Shown: one piece after another, positions 1,214 to 50,255 of the stretch
How the letters are laid out: every line of letters starts with the position of its first letter
Numbering within the stretch: position 1 is the stretch's first letter
From: Octopus vulgaris
Taxonomy: Eukaryota
Direction: 5' to 3'
DNA length: 64,000 bases
Assembly: GCA_951406725.2 (NCBI GenBank)
Contig: OX597815.1
Span: 186,062,001 to 186,126,000, forward strand
Made by a program: the position numbers and the translations under genes
The notes under the pieces: generated by a model
Told to the model about the DNA's origin: nothing
What the model saw: the letters and a program-made list of their open reading frames with translations, nothing else
The model's database searches: none

Positions 1214-1460
1214 ACAACAAACAAGATGAAGATACATATCCGCCCAATGTAAATAATATAAATAATGTACAGAATTCTTCGTCTCTAAAATATAGAACAG
1301 TTTTCCTATCGAGTTTTGCTAATTTATTCCGCTTCTTTAGAGTAGTGTTATAACTACAAATTGATGCTGAAGTAGCGAATATTATTATTTTGTAATACTT
1401 TAGTATGTATATATAAATTTAATTCTGCTTTTAGATAACAGTCCAATGCACCTATAATTT

Positions 1461-1663
1461 ACTTACTCTTTTACTTGTTTCAGTCATTTGACTGCGGCCA
1501 TGCTGGAGCACCGCCTTTAGTCGAGCAAATCGACCCCAGGACTTATTCTTTGTAAGCCCAGTACTTATTCTATCGGTCGCATTTGCCGAACCGCTAACTT
1601 ACGGGGACGTAAACACACCAGCATCGGTTGTCAAACAATGCTAGGGGGACAAACACAGACACA

Positions 1664-1755
<92 letters not shown>
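1461..1755 (-). mobile_element. SINE family A (tRNA-derived, CORE-like), 3' half, split by LINE insertion
   Basis: Matches the 3' half of intact copies (e.g. 12148-12552) and ends in the internal (CA)n(TA)n tract. Confidence 0.9.
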
Positions 1756-1758
<3 letters not shown>

Positions 1759-1843
1759 CTTAGAATAACTTAGAAAGGTTTTTGGTCAGTATTGGCCCAG
1801 GCCATGTCTAACTTAATAGCACCACCTGGCGAAGTCTTTCAGT

Positions 1844-4800
1844 TCAGGATTTGGGCACCAAGGCCCATTCGAGCAGAGAGTTATTGTTTGCGAAGACATA
1901 TCCGGGTGTGGGTGGTTTGTCCGGTACTGTTTGAAGGAATTTGTCCAAAGACTTCTTGAATTTTGTGTGGTCAGTTTCTTTTTTGACGTGTCCTGGTGTA
2001 ATGTTGAAGAGAGCGGGTCCAATTGAGGTGAAATAGTTGTGCCGTATTGTCGTTATGTGATGCGATTTAGATTTTTGTTGTGGACGGATGGCACGTGGTC
2101 CAAGCCTTGGATGCATTTTGAAGGTGATGCCAACATCATTCGGACAGTGCTGATGGAATATTTTCCACATCATACAGATAATGTAGCGTTCACGGCGTCG
2201 TTGGAGTGAATACAATTTCAGCTTCTCTAGTCTACCCCAGTAGTCAAGGTCTGACATGCCATCTATCTTTTTTGTGATTGACCTTTGGGGAGCTTCAATT
2301 CTCATAATATTTTGTTTTGTGTAGGGAGACCACAGTGGACAGCAGTATTCAAGGTGGGGTCGGGCAAAAGTGGAGAAGAGAAGGATAATAGCGTGGGAAT
2401 CTCTCGACTGGAAGGTTCTGAGAATCCAGGAACACATTCTGCGGGCCATGTCAACTTTGCTGCTTATATGTGTAGCCCAGCTTATGTTGTTGTCCACTGT
2501 TACTCCCAGGTCTCTGATGTTGTTGGATGCCATGAGAATTTCTCCAGAAGGAAGAGAGTATGGGAGTTTCAGAGCGTCCTCCCTTCCAAAGTGGATCAGT
2601 TCGAATTTGTCTTCATTTAGCAACATGTTATTCTTTTCCGCCCATTGGACAACAGCCAGTAGGTCTGACTGAAGGTTTATTCGGTCATCCACGCCATTGA
2701 TGACCTTCTGGAGCTTGGAATCATCAGCGAAGGTTCTGATGTTACTGTGTTTGATGGTGTCAGTAATATCATTTATGTAGATGATGAAGAGAAGTGGGCC
2801 CAACACAGTGCCTTGTGGGACACCACTGCTGACTTTGGCTGGGCTGGATTTGACTCCTTCGACTACAACATGTTGGGTTCTGTTAGACAGGAAGCACTTG
2901 ATCCATTGCAGCAGCTTTCCAGTGACACCAATATTGGACAGCTTTCTCAGAAGGATCTTATGATCAACCCTGTCAAAGGCCTTGCTGAAATCAAGGTAGA
3001 TGACATCAGTGTTGGAACCTTCTCCCAAGGCTCTCAAAATGTCATCAAAATGATGCAGTAGCTGCGTCAGGCAATCTCTCCCATTACGGAATCCATGCTG
3101 GTTGGGGTTCAGCATATTATGACTCTCAAGGAAGTGAGTCATACGCGATCTCAGCACCCTCTCAAATACCTTGATGATATGAGAGGTGAGTGAGATTGGA
3201 CGGTAATTCACGGCAAGCGATTTGTTTCCTTTTTTGAAAACTGGGACAACAGACTGGGATAGAAGGTCTTCTGGTATATATCCAGCATCCAGTGAGTTCC
3301 GCCACAGATTGGCTAGAGGGGGTGCAAGTTGGTTTTGACACATCTTCAAGACACAAGCAGGGAACCTATCGGGACCTACTGCTGAATTATGCTTCATTTC
3401 CTTTATTGCTGCTAAGACATCAGGAGCGCCAAATGTTATGTCCGATAAAGTGTATTGGGGAGTAACATCACTGATACAGCCCAGATCAGTCATATCAGGA
3501 TTGCTGAAAACAGAGCAATATTGTTTCTGCAATATCTCTCCCATGGTTTTGGCATTGTCTTGAAGAGTACCATTTTCATCAATCAGAGGGCCAACAGTAG
3601 AACCAGTGACTCTGTGTTTTTTTGCAAATGAAAAGAACACTTTGGGATTGAGTTTGATCTTCTCAATGGCCCAGGCCTCTTCAGCTCTTCGCTGACTATT
3701 GATGATAGACATCATGTTGTTTTGGAGTTTATGTTTTTTAATCTCTAGCGACGAGATGGCAGTCAGGTTGGTGTGTTGCTGTTGACAGTATTTCAGCATG
3801 TTGATCTTTTTGTTGATTCTTTTAATTTTCCTTATGAGAGATTTTCTATTTCTAGGGATTCGACACTTAGATTTGTTTGCAGATCTTAATGGGGTGTGTC
3901 TTGCACATATGTTCGTGATGGTGTCTACAAGTGACTGCCAGGACTTTTTGATGTTAGTGGGTGTGTATGTGTGCGTGAAGGACCAATCGACTTGTGCAAG
4001 ATCATTATTGATCGCTTCCCAGTTTGCATTGTGGAAATCCATAGTGTCAAATGGATGAACAGGAGGGATGACATTTGTTTTGCATTTTGGCCAGTGAAAT
4101 CTCAGATCACAGAGAACCATGTCATGGTCGGAGAGTAGGGTTTTCTCCACTGCAACATTGTGGATAGTATCAGTGTGATTGCTGAAAATTAAGTCTAAGA
4201 CGTTTTTGTGACATCTCGTTGGTTCGAGTACCAGTTGGGACAAGAAGAAGTCATCCATGAAGTCAAGAAGCGATTCCACTGCCTCCCTGTCAGGGGTTGA
4301 GAGAGAAGAACCTGGCGGCAGACTGTTTGTAGACCAGTCAACCCCGGGAAGGTTGAAGTCTCCCATCATTAAAATGTTGTCAGGTTGACACTGCTGAATG
4401 AAACACTTTATGCTGTTGAGGCATTCCTTGAAGCATGGTAGGGGCGTTTGGGGTGGTCTGTAGAGCCCAACTACTGTTAAGTTGTTGGTTTGACTGAATA
4501 CAGCGACTGCTTCGCAGTATCCATTGGAAAATATGTTCATGGCTTCTGTTGAGAATGAATCATGGACATAAATGGCAGTCCCACCCTTTCTTCTGCCAGC
4601 ACGATCAGCACGAATGGTTTTGAAATTTTTGACTTTCACCTCGGCTTCCAAGTGGAGGTCACTAAGATGGGTTTCAGTGAGGACGAAGAAAGGGATGTGG
4701 TTTGGATGGGCCTCGACCCAGTCCTCCAGGAATCTTATCTTCCATTTTTGTGTATTGGTGGAAGGGCTGATGCCTTGGGCATTAAGCAGAAATGTTGAGG

Positions 4801-4951
4801 CGAGAGTGGATGGTTTTAATTGTTTTGGTGATTTGTTTATTTGATTGCTTTTTAATGGTATGTGCAGTGGGGTAATAGTGGTGGATGGTGGTGGGTGATA
4901 GCTCGGATGTTTTTTTCCAGTTCTTTTGCTAGATTCATTATAGCTAAAAAA
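1844..4951 (-). CDS. LINE ORF2: AP endonuclease + reverse transcriptase
   Basis: 935-aa track ORF has APE motifs (RADRAGRRKGGTAIY, YRPP, GDFN, LDLIF, SDHD) and RT motifs (NYRPISL, QHGFR, YLDFSKAFD, GVPQG, FADD). The frame stays open upstream to 4975 and includes the APE N-terminus (FLLNAQG...FVLTETHL) with no in-frame AUG there. End given at the putative slippery site. Confidence 0.93.
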   Translation of the reverse strand, partial: FFSYNESSKRTGKKHPSYHPPPSTTITPLHIPLKSNQINKSPKQLKPSTLASTFLLNAQGISPSTNTQKWKIRFLEDWVEAHPNHIPFFVLTETHLSDLHLEAEVKVKNFKTIRADRAGRRKGGTAIYVHDSFSTEAMNIFSNGYCEAVAVFSQTNNLTVVGLYRPPQTPLPCFKECLNSIKCFIQQCQPDNILMMGDFNLPGVDWSTNSLPPGSSLSTPDREAVESLLDFMDDFFLSQLVLEPTRCHKNVLDLIFSNHTDTIHNVAVEKTLLSDHDMVLCDLRFHWPKCKTNVIPPVHPFDTMDFHNANWEAINNDLAQVDWSFTHTYTPTNIKKSWQSLVDTITNICARHTPLRSANKSKCRIPRNRKSLIRKIKRINKKINMLKYCQQQHTNLTAISSLEIKKHKLQNNMMSIINSQRRAEEAWAIEKIKLNPKVFFSFAKKHRVTGSTVGPLIDENGTLQDNAKTMGEILQKQYCSVFSNPDMTDLGCISDVTPQYTLSDITFGAPDVLAAIKEMKHNSAVGPDRFPACVLKMCQNQLAPPLANLWRNSLDAGYIPEDLLSQSVVPVFKKGNKSLAVNYRPISLTSHIIKVFERVLRSRMTHFLESHNMLNPNQHGFRNGRDCLTQLLHHFDDILRALGEGSNTDVIYLDFSKAFDRVDHKILLRKLSNIGVTGKLLQWIKCFLSNRTQHVVVEGVKSSPAKVSSGVPQGTVLGPLLFIIYINDITDTIKHSNIRTFADDSKLQKVINGVDDRINLQSDLLAVVQWAEKNNMLLNEDKFELIHFGREDALKLPYSLPSGEILMASNNIRDLGVTVDNNISWATHISSKVDMARRMCSWILRTFQSRDSHAIILLFSTFARPHLEYCCPLWSPYTKQNIMRIEAPQRSITKKIDGMSDLDYWGRLEKLKLYSLQRRRERYIICMMWKIFHQHCPNDVGITFKMHPRLGPRAIRPQQKSKSHHITTIRHNYFTSIGPALFNITPGHVKKETDHTKFKKSLDKFLQTVPDKPPTPGYVFANNNSLLEWALVPKS

Positions 4952-5866
4952 GAGGAAGAAGAGGTGGTTTCCTGTCTAGGGAACCGCAGGTGACTGTGGC
5001 CGCGGCTATTTTTATGTGAGTGGTTATCTTTAAATGTCCGACGAGTCCCCGGGAGATGGGTAAAGGGGCAATCCCTGTGCAAACACAATCTGTCTCGCTG
5101 GGAATAGCGGCAGATTTGGGGATTCCTTGTTTGAGATATTGGTGGTTGTGGTGATGTTGTATTATGGTGGTTGCTGTTGTAGTTTGTGGGGATAGAGCGT
5201 TTTGTTCCAGGTAAATGGGTGAATTTGCAGTCTCTATCAGTGCACAGTCTATGGCGAAGAGAATATCGGCAAATGATGGGGTTTCGAGTGGGTGTGTAGG
5301 TGCGTGTGTGAGTTGTGAAAGGTGTAGATGATAGTTTGTTGAAGTTTTGGCGACCTTTGTGACCTGTAGGAGGTAAATTCCTTGAGATAGCATTAGTAGT
5401 AGTTGTAGTAGTAGTAGGTAGAAGAGATGTTGACAGTGGTAATGATTGAGGAGGTCGATTCCAAGACAAAGATGTTTGTCGATACATAGTGGGTGTAGTA
5501 CTAGTAGTAGTAAGCAGAGGAGATGGTGTTGACAATGATGATGATTGAGCTGCTGGGGCAGTGAAAGGAAGGGGTGGTGCTTCCTGCTGTGTGACCCTGA
5601 TGACTGGGGGGGTCAATCGTTTCGTTTAGCAAATCGGCCATTGTAGATGAATCAAGGAGTGGTTCAACCTGTTGTTGTTGCTGTATCTGTTGTTGTTGTT
5701 GCCGCTTAGTTTGTTGTTGTTGTTGTCGCTGAGGTTGTTGCTGCTGAAGTTGTTGTTGTTGCTGTAGCTGTTGTTGTTGTTGCCGCTGAGTTTGTTGTTG
5801 TTGAGGTTGTTGTTGTTGTTGTTGTTGTTGTTGTTGCGCCGTGATGCGTTCGAAGAGAAAACACAT
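4852..5866 (-). CDS. LINE ORF1: poly-Q / S-T-P-rich N-terminus and two CCCH-type zinc fingers (1-bp frameshift in C7 run at 5606-5612)
   Basis: CRYSLRHRLCTDRDCKFTH and CRYSQRDRLCLHRDCPFTH (C-x8-C-x4-C-x3-H) lie in ORF 4852..5616. Removing one C joins it to the upstream frame MCFLFERITA-polyQ-...MADLLNETIDP. Confidence 0.75.
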
Positions 5867-5903
5867 CTCAGTTTATCGAAGTGTTTATTTATTAATTTAA
5901 AAG

Positions 5904-6090
5904 CATATATATATATATACATATATACGACAGGCTTCTTTCAGTTTCCGTCAACCAAATCCACTCACGAGGCATTGGTCGGCCCGGGGCTATGGTAGAA
6001 GACACTTGCCCAAGGTGCCACGCAGTGGGACTGAACCCGGAACCATGTGGTTGGTTAGCAAGCTACTTACCACACAGCCACTCCTGCGCC
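5904..6090 (-). mobile_element. SINE family A, 5' half (tRNA-like head)
   Basis: ggcgcaggagtggctgtgtggtaag (A-box-like), ggttcagtccc (B-box-like), accttgggcaagtgtctt (CORE-like). Confidence 0.9.
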
Positions 6091-6386
6091 TATTACATAA
6101 ATTTTTATGTAATTTATATGTGTGGTTTTTCAGTGTAATTTGTAAGTTCTGAAATATTCTTAAGTCTGCCGGCGACCATATTTTCTTTATCTCTTTTTCT
6201 TTTTCTCGTTGTAATCTCAAGATATTTGTGTGTGTTTTTATCATTAATTTTCGCTTTTCCAAGAGTATCATGGCGCGTATTTGTTAGCCCAACGTTTTAG
6301 CAATTCTTTTCGGAAATATATGCACGCTCTGTAAAAAGAGTCTCTTGTTGGTTATCATCTCATCTGCAATGTACAACTAGAGGCCG

Positions 6387-6905: not shown

Positions 6906-9269
6906 TTCCCCATAACCTTATGCCTACCTGTTACATCTATAATGATAAGCACGAAATTCTGTTTGTCCGGGATCCCTGTATCGCAGTCTACATTCGCTCT
7001 ACATATTATACCTTTTTTGGAATCAGGATGATCCCGGGATTGAAAATCTATCCTTCATTTGGTTCTTGAACATCCAGCATTGGAATATGATTTAAAAGCA
7101 TTTGGGTTACTATTTCTAGCAGGTAAAGAGTGGCTGATTCACGCCATTTTGGTTTACGTTTGTCAAATGACGTCAGAGATCAAAGGGGAGATAAATGACA
7201 TTCGCTTCGTTAATTTTACGTTGAGACAAGAACTTTGGTACAAATTGGCCATCTCCTGGCATCCAACTTAGGACCGGAACAATAGAATGATTGTATTACA
7301 GAATCGATCGTCATCTGTCCTTAACCTCTGATCAAACACCACCGGAGCATAGAGTCATTAGACACGTATTGTAGTCATGTAATTTATCTTCTGGACCGCA
7401 GCCCCAATTAGCCCTTTGTATGAGCCAACTAAAAAGTTCGCATGGTGTTCGGCCTTTAAGCAAGTACTTCAATAAATCTGGTATTTTATCATTTCTTCAT
7501 GCTTTCCACTTTTTCATCGTTTTCTAGCCTCTGCGCGCTTTCCTGGTAATTTCTCTGAGCATACAGCAGCCATACTAGCTTCAGGTGTTCCAGTTCCTTA
7601 CGATTCTTTCATCATCCACTGCCTTCCCCCGCAAATATTTCTAATTCTGTGGATGTTGGGTTTGCATTGATTTCAGGGTTTAGAACATGGGTTTTGATGG
7701 AAGTCACTTTGCTCCTGCGAAATCTTTCTCAATTTTACGAATAGAAATTTTGTGATTTAGCGCGGATCTGTTGTTTCCCACGTTCTTAGTTGCCAATGAT
7801 TTCCTTTATTTTTGTTATAATTGCCGCAGTATTTGTCACTCTACCTTTCTTGTTCCTTTGTATATTTTTGTTATCGATTTTTAAGGAGTGATGGAATTTT
7901 AAAGCTTCCTTTTATATTTATTTCCTCAATATTGCCTTATTTTATATTTATTTTCCTCAATATTTTCTTCATTTTATATTTATTTTTCCCAATATTTGCT
8001 TAAGTATTTATATTCCTATATAAATAGTTTTCATGGAACACACTTCTCTTTGTAACTACTATGGTTGCTGCATATATAATTTACTTTTTCCTAGTAATGT
8101 TCACTATTAAATCTTTCTCATACTGCTTTTTTACTTATATTTTAGCTTGTGTACTTCTGTTTCGCTACTTGCTATTCTACAGAACACCTACAGAATACTG
8201 AATAACAAGTGCCGACAGAGAACTACACATTTTTAAAAAGCTTTTTACTTTGTTTTGTACATGTAAAGTCTATCTTTGATGTTTACATTCTCAATGCTTT
8301 TAACTAGACTGTTTTAAATATCTTTATTCGCTTTTTTTTGCTTCTTAAATTTTTGTTCGTTGTTTATATATTTACAATGTTCTCGATCTTTTAAATGTTC
8401 TTTACCTATGTTTGATAACGTTCTCTTTTCAAGAATATTCTTTCTTGAATTAGCTGATCTATTTCGAGCCATATAAATGTCAGAAGAAGGCTTGTTTTAT
8501 GCTAGGTATTTCATATGTAGTATGGTGTGGTACTTTTATATTGGTGCTAGAGCGTAGTTACGAACTATGCATGTAAAACAGAAGGATATATATCTCACGT
8601 GAAGGCGAGTGGTTAAGGTGTCGCACTCAGGATCTAGTGATTCGGGTGTAGGAAGCCAAATTATTCCCTGCCCAGATGAAAACCGGCAATAGTTTGGCCC
8701 AGGAGAGAGTATACCCCTGGAGATAAACTATCCTAGGCCAAACTATATTTGTGGGTATAGAATAGCCTAGGCCAGAATATACCCATCTAACATGGTAGTC
8801 AATCACAAACGATGCTCATTAATGAATGTGAATCAGCAGAGTTGTGAACTGTGACTTGATTTTAACAGTAAATTGGTTGACTTTTCAATTTGTTATCAAG
8901 ACATGACAAATGTTTGCCATTTTTGTTTCGCTAAACGACCAATAACCGAGGATATTCGCCCCATTTAACTGAATCGGGGGTTCAAAATGGCGGCCACCAG
9001 ACAATAATGCAAGCAGGGGAGCAGAGTTTGCTGGTGCAAGTTGGGACGGGCAATTTTACAAGTTTTACATATTGCTTTTTATAATAAACATATTTACACT
9101 ATTTTATGAGCTCAAAAAATGGTTTCAAACCATTCCTGATATTCTAAATGCTATTTCTTAATAACTTAAAACAGATTTATTTAAAAATTATGCAACTTCA
9201 AGTTTGCCCACCAGGGGCAAAATAATTTAACATACTCAGACACACATCTGCTGGTTCTAACACCAAACT

Positions 9270-10411
9270 TTTTAGTAGAGATCCTACAATCACTGGTACT
9301 GTAGTCGCCTTGAGATGCCACATTTTTTCAATTTCTATTAACAAGCCTTTATATTTACTGATCTTGTCAAATTCTTTCGCCGCTATATTGTGATCGCAAG
9401 GAATACTCATGTCAATTAATAAACGCACCTTTTTTCTCTGATCTTTTATAATGATATCCAGTTTATTAGCTTTTATAGTTTTCTATGTATGTTCGGGGAA
9501 TTCCCAGAGAATCGACACATTTTCTCCCTCAATAACACCTTATTATATGCATTCAGCTCAGACTTCAGGACTGCTCGAACTCTTCTGTAACATTCCTTCC
9601 TAACCTTCTCTTTCATGCCTGTATGCTGGATACCAGAGCCTTCATGTATTCCTAGGTATTTATAGGTTTGTTCCTTCTCAAGTTCCTTTTTTACTGTTTT
9701 GGCATCTAATGCGATCGAACTTGAATTTACCAATTTCCCTTTCTTAAAAGTAGCTTTGGCACACTTTTCAAGGCCAAACTCCATCCCGATATCATCACTG
9801 AATCATTTTCACAGTTGTAGTAGTCCTTCAAGCTCTTCATCATCTTTGCCATATAGTTTTAAATCATCCATATAAAATAGATGGCATATTTTCCTGTTGT
9901 CAATTTTGTAGCCATACCCTGTTCTATTCAGTTCATTTGAGAGTGGTATTAGTGCTATGCAGAAAATGAATGGTGAAAGTGAGTCACCTTGGAAAATGCC
10001 ACAGTTTATGCTAATATTGTTTGGGCGCAATAATCCATTAGAATGATATAATTGGAGTTTCGTGTTCCATAGTGAAATATTATACTTTAAAAAACCTGAA
10101 ATCACAGGAGAAATTTTGAAAATTTCCAGCGATTTCAGAATCCACGAATGTGGTATGCTGTCAAAGGCTTTTTTATAATCAATCCATGAAGAGCTGAGAT
10201 TTCTGCACGTGTTATGGCTGTTCTCGAGGATGATGCGATCAATTAGGAGCTGATCTTTGCATCCGTATGAACCTCGTCTGCATCCTTTTTGTTCAGTGGG
10301 GAAGAGGTTATTCTCTTCCATAAACATCTATGTTTTCTCCACTAGAATAGGTGTCAAAATCTTATAGGTAGTAGACAAACGTTATAGGCCGGTAGATTTT
10401 TGGGTCTTTGG

Positions 10412-10412
<1 letters not shown>
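9270..10412 (-). pseudogene. R4/Dong-type RLE retrotransposon, second subfamily, RT and endonuclease fragments with deletions
   Basis: YRPIT, EQKGCRRGSYGCKDQL, WIDYKKAFDSIPH, GIFQGDSLSP, HLFYMDDLKLY, FGLEKCAK, YKYLG; C-terminal IDMSIP...ISKYKGL. Confidence 0.85.
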
Positions 10413-10487
<75 letters not shown>

Positions 10488-10490
<3 letters not shown>

Positions 10491-11196
10491 TAGTTTTATT
10501 TTTATAACGTGCTTTCACTTCACTACCGAGCACAGCTCTGTGTGCCTTGGGTACGTGCTGTGATTTGTTGTGATGCTCTGATGGTTATTGTATGGAAAGT
10601 GTTCTGCGTAGAATGTGTGCAGTGCCTAGTAGTGCAATTTTCTGTATGTTATATGTGTTTGTAAGTCCTGGTGTTTTTGTTATGTATTTGTCTGAATATT
10701 TTTTTATCATGCCTAATGCACCTACTATGATAGGAATTGTTTCTGTTTTCAGATTCCGCATTCTAGTTACCTCTATTTCCAGGTCTTTGTATTTTGAGAG
10801 TTTCTCCATTTCTTTTAGAGACACGTTGTCATCAGCCGGTATTGATACATCAATTAGAAAGCATTTTTTTTCTTCATGATCTCTGACAACTATATCTGGT
10901 CTGTTGGCCTTAATTTCTCTATCTGTGTGTATCGGCATATCCCAGAGTATGGTTGCTTTCTCGTTTTCTGTGACCTTTTCTGGTGTGTGCCTATACCATC
11001 TTTTTTCTGTTGTTATTCCATAATGTTGGCATAGCTTCCAATGTATGTAGGTTCCAACTCTGTCATGTCTGTGAATATATTCCTTCTTAGCCAAGACTGG
11101 GCAGCTAGAGATAATATGATTTATTGTTTCTTGTCCATCTCCACATATTCTGCAGTTACTTGTAATATTTCTTTTCATTACATGTTTTTGGTAATT
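10488..11196 (-). mobile_element. R4/Dong-type element, 5'-truncated (zinc knuckle, PD-(D/E)xK endonuclease, 3' UTR), in (AAT)n
   Basis: CRICGDGQETINHIISSC, RHD, RPDIVV, IDVSIP, KLSKY; nearly identical to 44577-45280; (TTA)n on both sides. Confidence 0.9.
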
Positions 11197-11440
<244 letters not shown>

Positions 11441-11596
11441 TTTGCCTTTCATCCTTTTGGGGTCGATAAATGAAGTACTAGCTACTGGAGTCGATATAAT
11501 CAACTTGTCCACGCCCCGAAAAATGGCTGATTTGTGGCAAAATTTGAAACCATTATTATTAGTAGTAGTTGTAGTAGTAGTAGCAGCAGCAGCTGC

Positions 11597-47531: not shown

Positions 47532-48179
47532 GGGCAGCGAGCTGGCAGAATGGTTAGCACGCCGGGCGAAATGCTAAGCGGTATTTCGTCTGCCGCTACG
47601 TTCTGAGTTCAAATTCTGCCGAGATCGACTTTGCCTTTCATCCCTTCGGCGTCGATTAATTAAGTACCAGTTACGCACTGAGGTCGATGTAATCGACTTA
47701 ATCCCTTTGTCTGCCCTTGTTTGTCCCCTCTGTGTTTAGCCCCTTGTGGGTATTAAAGAAATATATATATATTTTAAGGCGGCGAGCTGGCAGAAACGTT
47801 AGCGCACCGAGCGAAATGCCTTGCGATATTTCGCCTGTCGTTACGTTGTGAGTTCAAATTCCGCCGAGGTCGACTTTGCCTTTCATCCTTTCGGGGTCGA
47901 TAAATTAAGTACCAGTTACGCACTGAGGTCGATATAATCGACTTAATACCTATCTCTGTCCTTGTGTGTCCCCTCTGTGTGTAGCCCCTTGTGGGTAGTA
48001 AAGAAATACGTATTTCGCCTGTCTTTATGTTCTGAGTTCAAATTCCGCCGAGGTCGACTTTGCCTTTCATCCTTTCGGGGTCGATTAAATAAGTACCAGT
48101 TACGCACAGGGGTCGATATAATCGACTTAATCCGTTTGCCTGTCCTTGTTTGTCGTCTCTGTGGGTAGTAAAGAAATAT
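47532..48179 (+). mobile_element. SINE family B trimer flanked by an 18-bp direct repeat
   Basis: atattgaaacatcaataa at 47514-47531 and 48180-48197. Confidence 0.85.
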
Positions 48180-49139
48180 ATATTGAAACATCAATAAATG
48201 CCACTCTGAGTAATATCAATATATCCAAATTCTTTGTTGCTCTGTAAGTTACCATTTGATGTGACTTGATTATATCATACAGTGCTTCCTACGCAATAGA
48301 AGAAAATATTTCTTGCAACCGTATGTCTTTGTTATTCGTTTTCCAATTTTAGTATTTACATTGAGGAACATCCATCTGAAACATTAAATTTCTTCAGCCA
48401 CAGAAAATTATTTTCTCACTATAAACACCGAAGCTGGTGAAGAGGAATGGGTAAAACCAATATCCCTCGGAATTATTACATTTTAGATTATAATGTTTAA
48501 CTGCCAAGAAGAATATATAAATCATATGCTAAACCGATTTAAAATTATAACATTTATCATTCTTATGTCGATTTGATAGTCTTCATATATACAAATATAT
48601 GCCACAATCGCCTCTATTGCTTATCCAGACACATTTTTATTACTGCACCAGAAAATAAATATATTCAGCAAATTTGTGTTCTTCAAAATACCTCACTTGC
48701 TTAACAGAGAGCTCATAAATGATAGGTTTAATGTAACTTATTTTGAAAGCTAGATTAATGTTGGTGGAATGTGAATATAGCTCTGTAAAACTTATTGTGA
48801 AATAAAATCAAAATAACATTTGAGATAGACATGTCTTCTGAATCGGAAACTATTCCAGGGAAAAAAAATAAAAAAGAAAACCAATATGAAATTGGTTAAA
48901 TACAGACACAAAAATTATATTAAATATATTTTGCTTACTTTTGAGTTCAAATGTTGTGGTTTAAGGTGATTCATCAAAATATTAAATACAAATCAATCAA
49001 GCAATAAAGTGAATTCAAATTAGCTGTAATAGCACTGTATCTCAATACAAAATATATCGCACACAAAAGTAGATTCCATAGCGTTATAAACCTAAAAGTA
49101 CACGAAATAAAATCTTTGCTGGAATAATAGTCATTATTT

Positions 49140-50255
49140 GAACTCATATTTGAACTCAGAATGTAAAGACAGACGAAATACCGCTTAGCTTTTTGCCCAG
49201 CTTGCTAACGTTTCTGCCACCTCGCCACCTTAAAAACAGTTAAATATTCTTTTCTACTCTAGGTAAAGGCCCAAAATATTTAGAAAGGGGACCAGTCGAT
49301 TAGATCGACCCCAGTACGCAACTGGTACTTAATTTGTTGACCTCGAAAGTATCAAAGGCAAAGTCAACCTCGGCGAAATTTGATCTCAGAATGTATCGAC
49401 ACGAAATACCTTAAAGCATTAGATCGACCCCAGTACGCAACTGGTACTTAATTTGTTGACCCCGAAAGGATGAAAAGCAAAGTCGACCTCGGCGAAATTT
49501 GATCTCAGAATGTATCGACACGAAATACCTCAAAGCATTAGATCGACCCCAGTACGCAACTAGGTACTTAATTTGTTGACCCCGAAAGGATGAAAGGCAA
49601 AGTCGACCTCGGCGAAATTTGAACTCAGAATGTAAAGACAGACGAAATACCTATTTCTTTACTGCACACAATGGGCTACACACAGAGGGGACAAACAAGG
49701 ACAGACAAACGGATTAAGTCGATTACATCGACCCCAGTGCGTAACTGGTACTTATTTAATCGACCCCGAAAGGATGAAAGGCTAAGTCGACCTCGGCGGA
49801 ATATGAACTCAGAACGTAGCGGCAGACGAAATACCTATTTCTTTACTACCCATAAAGGGGCTAAACACAGAGGGGACAAACAAGGACAGACAAAGGTATT
49901 AAGTCGATTACATCGACCCCAGTGCGTAACTGGTACTTAATTTATCGACCAAAAGGATCTAAGGCAAAGTCGACCTCAGCGAAATTTGTACCCAGAATGT
50001 AAAGACAGACGAAATACCTATTTCTTTACTACCCACAAGGGGCCAAACACAGAGAGGACAAACAAACAAGGACAGACAAACGGACTAAGTCAATTATATC
50101 GACCCCAGTGCGTAACTGCTACTTATTTACTCGACCCCGAAAGGTTGAAAGGCAAAGTCGACCTCGGCGGAATTTGAACTCAGAACGTAACGGCAGACGA
50201 AATACGGCTAAGCATTTCGCCCGGCGTGCTAACGTTTCTGCCAGCTCGCTGCCTT
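49140..50255 (-). mobile_element. Tandem array of SINE family B units
   Basis: cgaccccagt recurs at 49306, 49425, 49544, 49729, 49914 and 50100. Confidence 0.88.

Follow-up and report, generated by a model that had tools for sequence, protein, structure and literature searches.

In a 64,000-nucleotide (nt) stretch of the Octopus vulgaris genome (assembly GCA_951406725.2, contig OX597815.1, positions 186,062,001 to 186,126,000; hereafter, the window), we identified a copy of a long interspersed nuclear element (LINE) of the CR1 clade, which occupies 4,149 bp of the minus strand (5905→1757) and whose first open reading frame (ORF1) encodes zinc fingers with three Cys and one His ligand (CCCH). 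The element is probably a young CR1 LINE in which a duplicated third finger of the ORF1 protein (ORF1p) binds element RNA and in which the second reading frame (ORF2), encoding an endonuclease (APE) and a reverse transcriptase (RT), is reached by a −1 ribosomal slip at the heptamer U_UUU_UUA. A wider and more tentative reading, to which we give a little under an even chance, is that the element belongs to a deep and widespread CR1 sub-clade that combines an undescribed ORF1 type (optional Tudor/MBT domain, helical region, PHD finger, three CCCH fingers, and C-terminal helix) with a gag-pol-like −1 frameshift at a heptamer hidden in Phe-Leu (FL) codons, so that the RT would be born fused to the fingers; in the octopus family, the front end would have been swapped for a translated polyglutamine (poly-Q) segment and finger 3 doubled. 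Feature coordinates are collected in Table 1.

The CCCH type of ORF1 is almost certainly real. A total of 92 homologues were collected (28 proteins from a phmmer search with the finger region and 65 from a profile search, one being common to both), and 85 of these contain the pattern of finger 3. The Cys and His ligands, whose conservation had been named as a check in the original prediction made from this DNA, show no or almost no variation in two alignments (23 and 66 proteins), and 42 of the 66 aligned members match Pfam zf-CCCH at E ≤ 0.01. Full-length homologues present the same order of parts, i.e., an optional MBT/Tudor domain, a helical region, a PHD-like finger, a linker, and three CCCH fingers, followed by a low-complexity segment, a helix, and a Q/P-rich tail. 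Thus, a LINE ORF1 with conserved CCCH fingers, as originally proposed, stands, while the pairing of poly-Q with CCCH fingers as its definition is not supported, as all 92 homologues lack a Q-rich segment at the N-terminus (maximum, 9 Q in 30 residues); the usual N-terminal partner of the fingers is the helical region with the PHD-like finger, and Q/P-rich sequence forms the C-terminal tail. The PHD finger is present in relatives L001, P0101, and P0113, and is not present in the ORF1 of the window. Two homologues (P0090 and P0112) show an N-terminal MBT/Tudor-knot match ahead of the PHD-like finger, which places two chromatin-reader modules on one ORF1, and the 916-residue ORF1 of L001 (L001:3-2750) carries an apparently repeated helical-plus-PHD module before its three fingers.

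The CCCH ORF1 co-occurs with a single RT clade, an association for which the original prediction had suggested a search across molluscs. Among 112 loci that were fetched using ORF2 alignments (the finger alignment contained no conserved stretch for a locus search, and viral contigs gave no matches), the finger profile matched only five at E ≤ 0.01 (L001, L005, L006, L007, and L082), each time in the ORF directly upstream of the APE-RT ORF; upstream ORFs of the other loci encode a GDSL esterase, a PHD finger, or no Pfam match (30 upstream ORFs scanned). In a quick RT tree of 62 rows (hand-picked proteins with no named references, L064 and L066 left out), these five loci, L002, and the window are together split from all other rows by a branch with a Shimodaira-Hasegawa-like approximate likelihood ratio (SH-aLRT) support of 100. 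One point weighs against this linkage, in that L002 is labelled CCCH by clade and helix alone, its contig starting past the fingers. Loci L081–L112 are LINE sequences in bacterial and archaeal genome bins and most likely represent host contamination. The assignment to CR1 follows from the RT segment, which, by eye, is identical across the approximately 160 residues shown to O.sinensis_33_LINE, an Octopus sinensis cluster of 69 members placed in the CR1 clade of the Jockey superfamily by a published reference tree (Martelossi et al. 2023, PMC10294476); in the parts of that study consulted, only the RT is classed, and a description of ORF1 or of the junction was not found. Proto2, which had been considered as the clade, was dropped after the RT had been assigned to CR1.

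This ORF1 type is apparently undescribed. The ORF1 domains that have been catalogued are RRM, CCHC, Tnp22, PHD, esterase, and zf/lz (Metcalfe and Casane 2014, PMC4120745), and the main text and Table 1 of that paper contain no mention of CCCH. Like ORF1 types I–V of the Jockey superfamily (the Khazina and Weichenrieder types, as extended in PMC4120745), the ORF1 described here lies upstream of APE-RT, and the relatives of the window element carry a PHD finger as do types IC, IIC, and III; unlike types I–V, it has three CCCH fingers (in the window, two copies of finger 3) and no detected RRM, CCHC, Tnp22, or esterase. Specifically, the ORF1s of L001, L005, L006, and L007 gave no Pfam match to these four domains at E ≤ 0.001 (a remote RRM in the helical N-terminal region might escape Pfam), and a Pfam scan of the window ORF1 gave none at E ≤ 1 and no PHD. 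Among the matches listed by a literature search, no paper on a CCCH ORF1 or a CR1 slippery site was found, the search having covered neither Repbase/Dfam nor the curated-library supplements of Martelossi et al. nor most subscription and older CR1/T1/SART1 papers. A CCCH-based type tied to one RT clade would add to the LINE ORF1 catalogue and supports the view that ORF1s arise by modular capture.

The two repeats of the form RNP.IC-x8-C-x4-C-x3-H-x5-R that had been reported for the window are indeed present on its minus strand. They represent a family-specific duplication of finger 3 of an ancestral three-finger array, the first two fingers of which are missing here. A second copy of finger 3, as defined by the same pattern, was found in none of the 92 homologues; P0089, P0093, and P0001, in which the C-terminal helix of ORF1p is also conserved, resemble degenerate two-copy relatives. 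The two copies are identical at 23 of 30 residues and at 60% of bases, and differ by 16 synonymous and 7 non-synonymous codons; this excess of synonymous differences indicates that the duplicate has been kept under purifying selection at the protein level.

In this copy, ORF1 is split. As originally predicted, the CAA/CAG tract is duplicated and in frame from the ATG at 5866 through that at 5641, with the qualification that the Q frame terminates at 5501 and the fingers are read in a different frame here (5625–4852); the break is due to a single extra base in a C7 run (5612–5606). Other copies of the family in four sequencing runs (X1, X2, X4, and X5) were compared with window positions 4700–5680, a range that does not include the CAA tract itself. 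The extra base of the C7 run is missing in X1, X2, and X5, indicating that ORF1 is continuous in the family; X4, which consists of short contigs, gave no call at this run, and one diverged X4 contig presents another gap pattern (net −3 relative to the window). The 3′ end of the CAA tract is common to X1, X2, and X5, and because contigs reach past 5680 (by 15 and 23 nt in X2 and X5, respectively, and by 244 nt in one X1 contig, as compared to the 225 nt between 5680 and the 5′ end of the element in the window), this end of the tract belongs to the family. No gap was found at the ORF1/ORF2 junction in X1, X2, and X5, and the idea that ORF1 and ORF2 are one fused frame interrupted by an indel at their junction was therefore rejected.

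Poly-Q may well be translated from AUG 5866, with leaky scanning to AUG 5641, a reading that we consider slightly better than an even bet; it would then be a family-specific N-terminal extension. No AUG of the element precedes the one at 5866, which lies in frame and is followed by 75 stop-free codons; a control CAA tract elsewhere in the window contains TAA; and A>G changes within the tract favor codon position 3 over position 2 (11 vs. 3 raw, p = 0.03; 7 vs. 2 after the duplication was collapsed by hand, p = 0.09). The tract end shared by three runs, and the contig extending 244 nt past 5680, point in the same direction. The alternative, to which we give not quite an even chance, is that the CAA tract is a microsatellite in the 5′ untranslated region (UTR) and that ORF1 starts at AUG 5641, yielding a 263-residue CCCH protein without poly-Q; this alternative is independent of the route to ORF2. 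It would account for the absence of N-terminal poly-Q from all 92 homologues and for the stronger context of AUG 5641, and the 78 tandem-repeat rows of the window include other CAA-type tracts. These features, and the weakness of the coding signal (p = 0.03–0.09), weigh against translation of the poly-Q. The interruptions of the tract do keep triplet phase, as had been noted, yet this does not serve as a coding signal, since substitutions never shift phase in any microsatellite. A related observation was made at 9198–11448 (minus strand), where decayed pieces of an RT element (RVT_1 and zf-RVT matches) are broken by an (AAT)n tract that reads in frame as poly-Asn; microsatellites can thus mimic low-complexity coding sequence in this region. 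Overall, the poly-Q is of lesser weight, being family-specific and perhaps untranslated, and the conserved frameshift signal is the stronger result.

The means by which LINEs translate ORF2 have long been debated as an open question, and the junction of ORF1 and ORF2 in this clade offers a 7-nt target. U_UUU_UUA is found in the ORF1 frame of six of seven clade members (the window, L001, L002, L005, L006, and L007), with A_AAA_AAC taking its place in L082; it is kept letter for letter, although ORF2 identity among members is only 30–42%. U_UUU_UUA codes for the conserved FL with which the ORF1 helix starts. ORF2 lies in the −1 frame in L001, L002, L005, L006, and L007, with an overlap of 214–415 nt that opens 3–9 nt before the heptamer; in the window, the heptamer lies 24 nt after the −1 frame opens. 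Under a null model in which amino acids are fixed and synonymous codons redrawn, 0.33 of seven members would be expected to have a heptamer, as compared to the seven observed, and 0.78 of seven to have an open −1 frame; given the amino acids, the chance of precisely TTT TTA preceded by a T is P = 0.01–0.04 for each. The first Met of ORF2 lies after the first Asn of the APE domain in four of five relatives (L001, L002, L005, and L007), and, as counted by eye and depending on gene callers, the start lies beyond the first APE motif in 13 of the 21 best-ranking ORF2 homologues; gene callers would thus truncate such ORF2s. In addition, no variant is listed at the slip site in the four runs, and the stretch from the slip site to the AUG of ORF2 holds five variants, of which three are silent in the ORF2 frame and none in the ORF1 frame, which is a weak signal. 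At L001:2751, L005:1684, L006:531, and L007:2554, ORF1 is closed only by a TAA whose letters come from codons at or shortly ahead of the first endonuclease motif, and 68–135 codons are dual-coded as a result.

A similar arrangement was found in a wider sample of 113 sequences, from which 72 were dropped (49 that did not reach APE, 13 with <450 nt upstream, nine without an ORF1 of 130 residues, and one with no match). A −1 overlap was present in 32 of the 41 usable loci, and an in-frame heptamer in 28 of these 32, as compared to 4.6 expected. The ORF2 overlap is also −1 in distant CR1-group loci without CCCH fingers (L008–L070; e.g., L015:908, L031:890, L013:1346, and L012:1541), where the heptamers sit inside conserved ORF1 motifs, i.e., AKN (A_AAA_AAC), TPL (C_CCU_UUA), GN (G_GGA_AAC), and LN (U_UUA_AAC). 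If these heptamers are used, −1 frameshifting would be a common way for LINEs of the CR1 group to reach ORF2, given their presence in 28 of the 32 loci with an overlap.

Based on these sequence patterns, −1 slippage is quite likely used in the CCCH clade and, with rather less confidence, probably in this family. Several observations weigh against it. The open −1 frame of the window, taken alone, is not unusual (P = 0.54), and, since the loci are related, the P values treat them as more independent than they are. In L006, an upstream Met precedes the APE Asn, and only 24 of 92 homologues have FL behind the fingers. A conserved 3′ stimulator was not evident, with z < −1.65 in four of 28 downstream windows as compared to two of 28 controls, and z = −1.05 in the window element (minimum free energy folding, with pseudoknots outside the model); base pairing between the slip region and the 3′ end did not exceed that of control windows in any of the four loci that have a 3′ end. 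Finally, in eight of the 21 ORF2 homologues the start precedes the APE motif, and all four runs of this family have an ORF2 AUG at 4861.

The last two observations, and the lack of a stimulator in downstream folding or 3′-end pairing, would fit the main alternative for this family, namely, that ORF1 is of the CCCH type and ORF2 is made separately from AUG 4861. The AUG, which overlaps the ORF1 stop region and has been lost in this copy, would allow termination-reinitiation, a route to ORF2 translation like that of SART1 and L1, and the heptamer would be a relic or a by-product of FL. We consider this unlikely, though far from negligible, given that ORF2 has no Met ahead of the APE Asn in four of five relatives, that the choice of TTT TTA with an upstream T is improbable from the amino acids alone, and that AUG 4861 lies in a weak context.

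The −1 slip favored here has counterparts in other systems. The frameshift heptamer of HIV-1 gag-pol is U_UUU_UUA, identical to that in this clade, and a −1 overlap joins a structural and an enzyme gene in both cases; in contrast to retroviral gag-pol, the conserved downstream hairpin was not found here, and there is no protease to free the enzyme. Among APE-type LINEs, TRE5-A and TRE3-A of Dictyostelium (L1 clade) are said in a review to need a −1 frameshift for ORF2 (PMC5911963); they belong to another clade with another ORF1, and neither a slippery heptamer nor a direct test was found for them in the relevant part of that review. HeT-A, TART, and mammalian LINEs are named in Atkins et al. 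2016 (PMC5009743), where no CR1 case was found in the accessible portion of the text.

The fingers are predicted, with good confidence, to bind RNA. The best matches of the clade profile in PDB are MBNL1 (E = 1.2e-6), CPSF30 (2.8e-5), and TTP (4.3e-4), whose tandem CCCH domains share with the clade CCCH ligands at near-canonical spacing; however, these matches rest on finger 1, which is absent in the window, and the spacing of fingers 2 and 3 differs. The three-finger module was modelled at a predicted local distance difference test (pLDDT) score of 87, while the window ORF1 model has a mean pLDDT of 59, and its fold search returned weak MBNL1/CPSF30 rows and generic helix matches; ESM Atlas matches were all <0.9 and serve as leads only. 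Some results on the fingers count against the favored explanation. The fold search with the three-finger model gave no significant match (best, CPSF30 with Z = 3.3, root-mean-square deviation 3.6, and 46 aligned residues), a result that says nothing about novelty of the fold; the window fingers alone fall below the Pfam cut-off (best, Nab2-like zf-CCCH, E = 0.79); and finger 3, the one retained in the window, is the least canonical of the array. It is improbable that the fingers are instead a protein-interaction or structural zinc module, such as a decoy for host CCCH/ZAP-like restriction factors, since, despite the non-canonical C-x8-C-x4 type of the retained finger, the loss of the two canonical fingers here, and weak ZAP-like (3/66 members) and PARP12-like (2/66) Pfam matches, the closest solved relatives by profile are RNA binders, the aromatic and basic residues are kept (CRYS, F.H, and GT[KR]R), and Pfam detected no other RNA-binding domain in ORF1.

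From the observed features (element anatomy, conserved fingers, their linkage to one clade, the single extra base in this copy, the heptamer, and an ORF2 frame open at −1), we infer the following scheme. Most ribosomes would finish ORF1p, consisting of a low-complexity N-terminus, the fingers, and the C-terminal helix; this protein would coat element RNA via its fingers, and the helix may oligomerize. On reaching the FL codons, a minority of ribosomes would slip and read on into ORF2, yielding a CCCH-APE-RT fusion in which a linker read in the −1 frame replaces the helix and tail. ORF2p would thus carry its own RNA-binding fingers (plus the PHD finger in relatives), favoring cis-preference, and the predicted ORF1-ORF2 fusion would explain cis-preference in this clade. 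The poly-Q, if translated, would provide a low-complexity tail, possibly prone to condensate formation, in the place that a folded helical-plus-PHD region occupies in relatives. Termination-reinitiation at AUG 4861 may act alongside the −1 slip in this family.

Table 1. Features of the CR1 element and its flanks (positions are those of the window)
Feature	Position	Strand	Basis or remark
(TA)n(TG)n and 3′ half of host short interspersed nuclear element (SINE)	1460..1756	−	Repeat listing, self-search
Whole LINE copy	1757..5905	−	SINE halves at both flanks, adjoining each other in other window copies (self-search)
3′ UTR with short tandem tail, TTCTAAGTTA-like unit	1757..1843	−	Sequence
ORF2 frame, APE endonuclease and RT, 1,043 codons open	1844..4975	−	−1 to ORF1, 124-nt overlap
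ORF1 stop TAA	4852..4854	−	Sequence
ATA here; ATG in ORF2 frame in X1, X2, X4, and X5	4859..4861	−	Run variants; 7 nt before ORF1 stop; weak context (C at −3)
ORF1p C-terminal amphipathic helix (predicted)	4894..4953	−	Helix 225–244 of model m096539734fac; dual-coded with ORF2-frame linker
Second in-frame heptamer, A_AAA_AAC	4909..4915	−	Sequence differs in a single diverged contig of X4
U_UUU_UUA heptamer in ORF1 frame, candidate −1 site	4945..4951	−	Conserved xFL motif; sequence and relatives
CCCH finger copy 2	5038..5127	−	Duplicate of copy 1; low model confidence, as the alignment lacks a second copy
CCCH finger copy 1, C-x8-C-x4-C-x3-H and GTKR	5197..5286	−	Homologous to finger 3 of clade array; pLDDT 85–93
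Thr/Pro/Ser-rich low-complexity linker	5287..5605	−	T28 P17 S14 among the first 113 residues of the frame; pLDDT 42–61
C7 run with the additional base that breaks ORF1 here	5606..5612	−	Base missing at full depth in X1, X2, and X5
Second in-frame AUG, alternative ORF1 start skipping poly-Q	5639..5641	−	Sequence; strong context (A at −3, G at +4)
CAA/CAG tract, 55 codons (36 CAA, 8 CAG, no stop), poly-Q if translated	5670..5836	−	Sequence; twice-repeated interrupted unit
First AUG of the element, Q frame	5864..5866	−	Sequence; G at −3, T at +4
AT-rich leader, 39 nt	5867..5905	−	Q frame shut by stops upstream of ATG 5866
5′ half of host SINE	5906..6093	−	Self-search, 11 further matches in window

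The remaining features concern the element as a whole and its surroundings. ORF2 matches Pfam RVT_1 (E = 1.6e-30) and Exo_endo_phos_2 (E = 8.4e-14). CR1-clade LINEs end in short tandem repeats at their 3′ ends, and relatives L001, L005, and L007, like the window element, terminate in short tandem units; no second match of the element ends, as expected for long terminal repeats, was found in the window self-search. The LINE splits a SINE at an internal (TA)n/(TG)n tract, and both flanks are (TA)n, which would mask any target-site duplication. Insertion into the TA tract of an abundant SINE may reflect a preference for TA microsatellites, a possibility that rests on one insertion. Between 77 and 85% of the window’s words are present in 20 of the 24 listed sequencing runs. 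Tandem arrays of SINE-like units of 119–245 bp were also found at 47533–50205.

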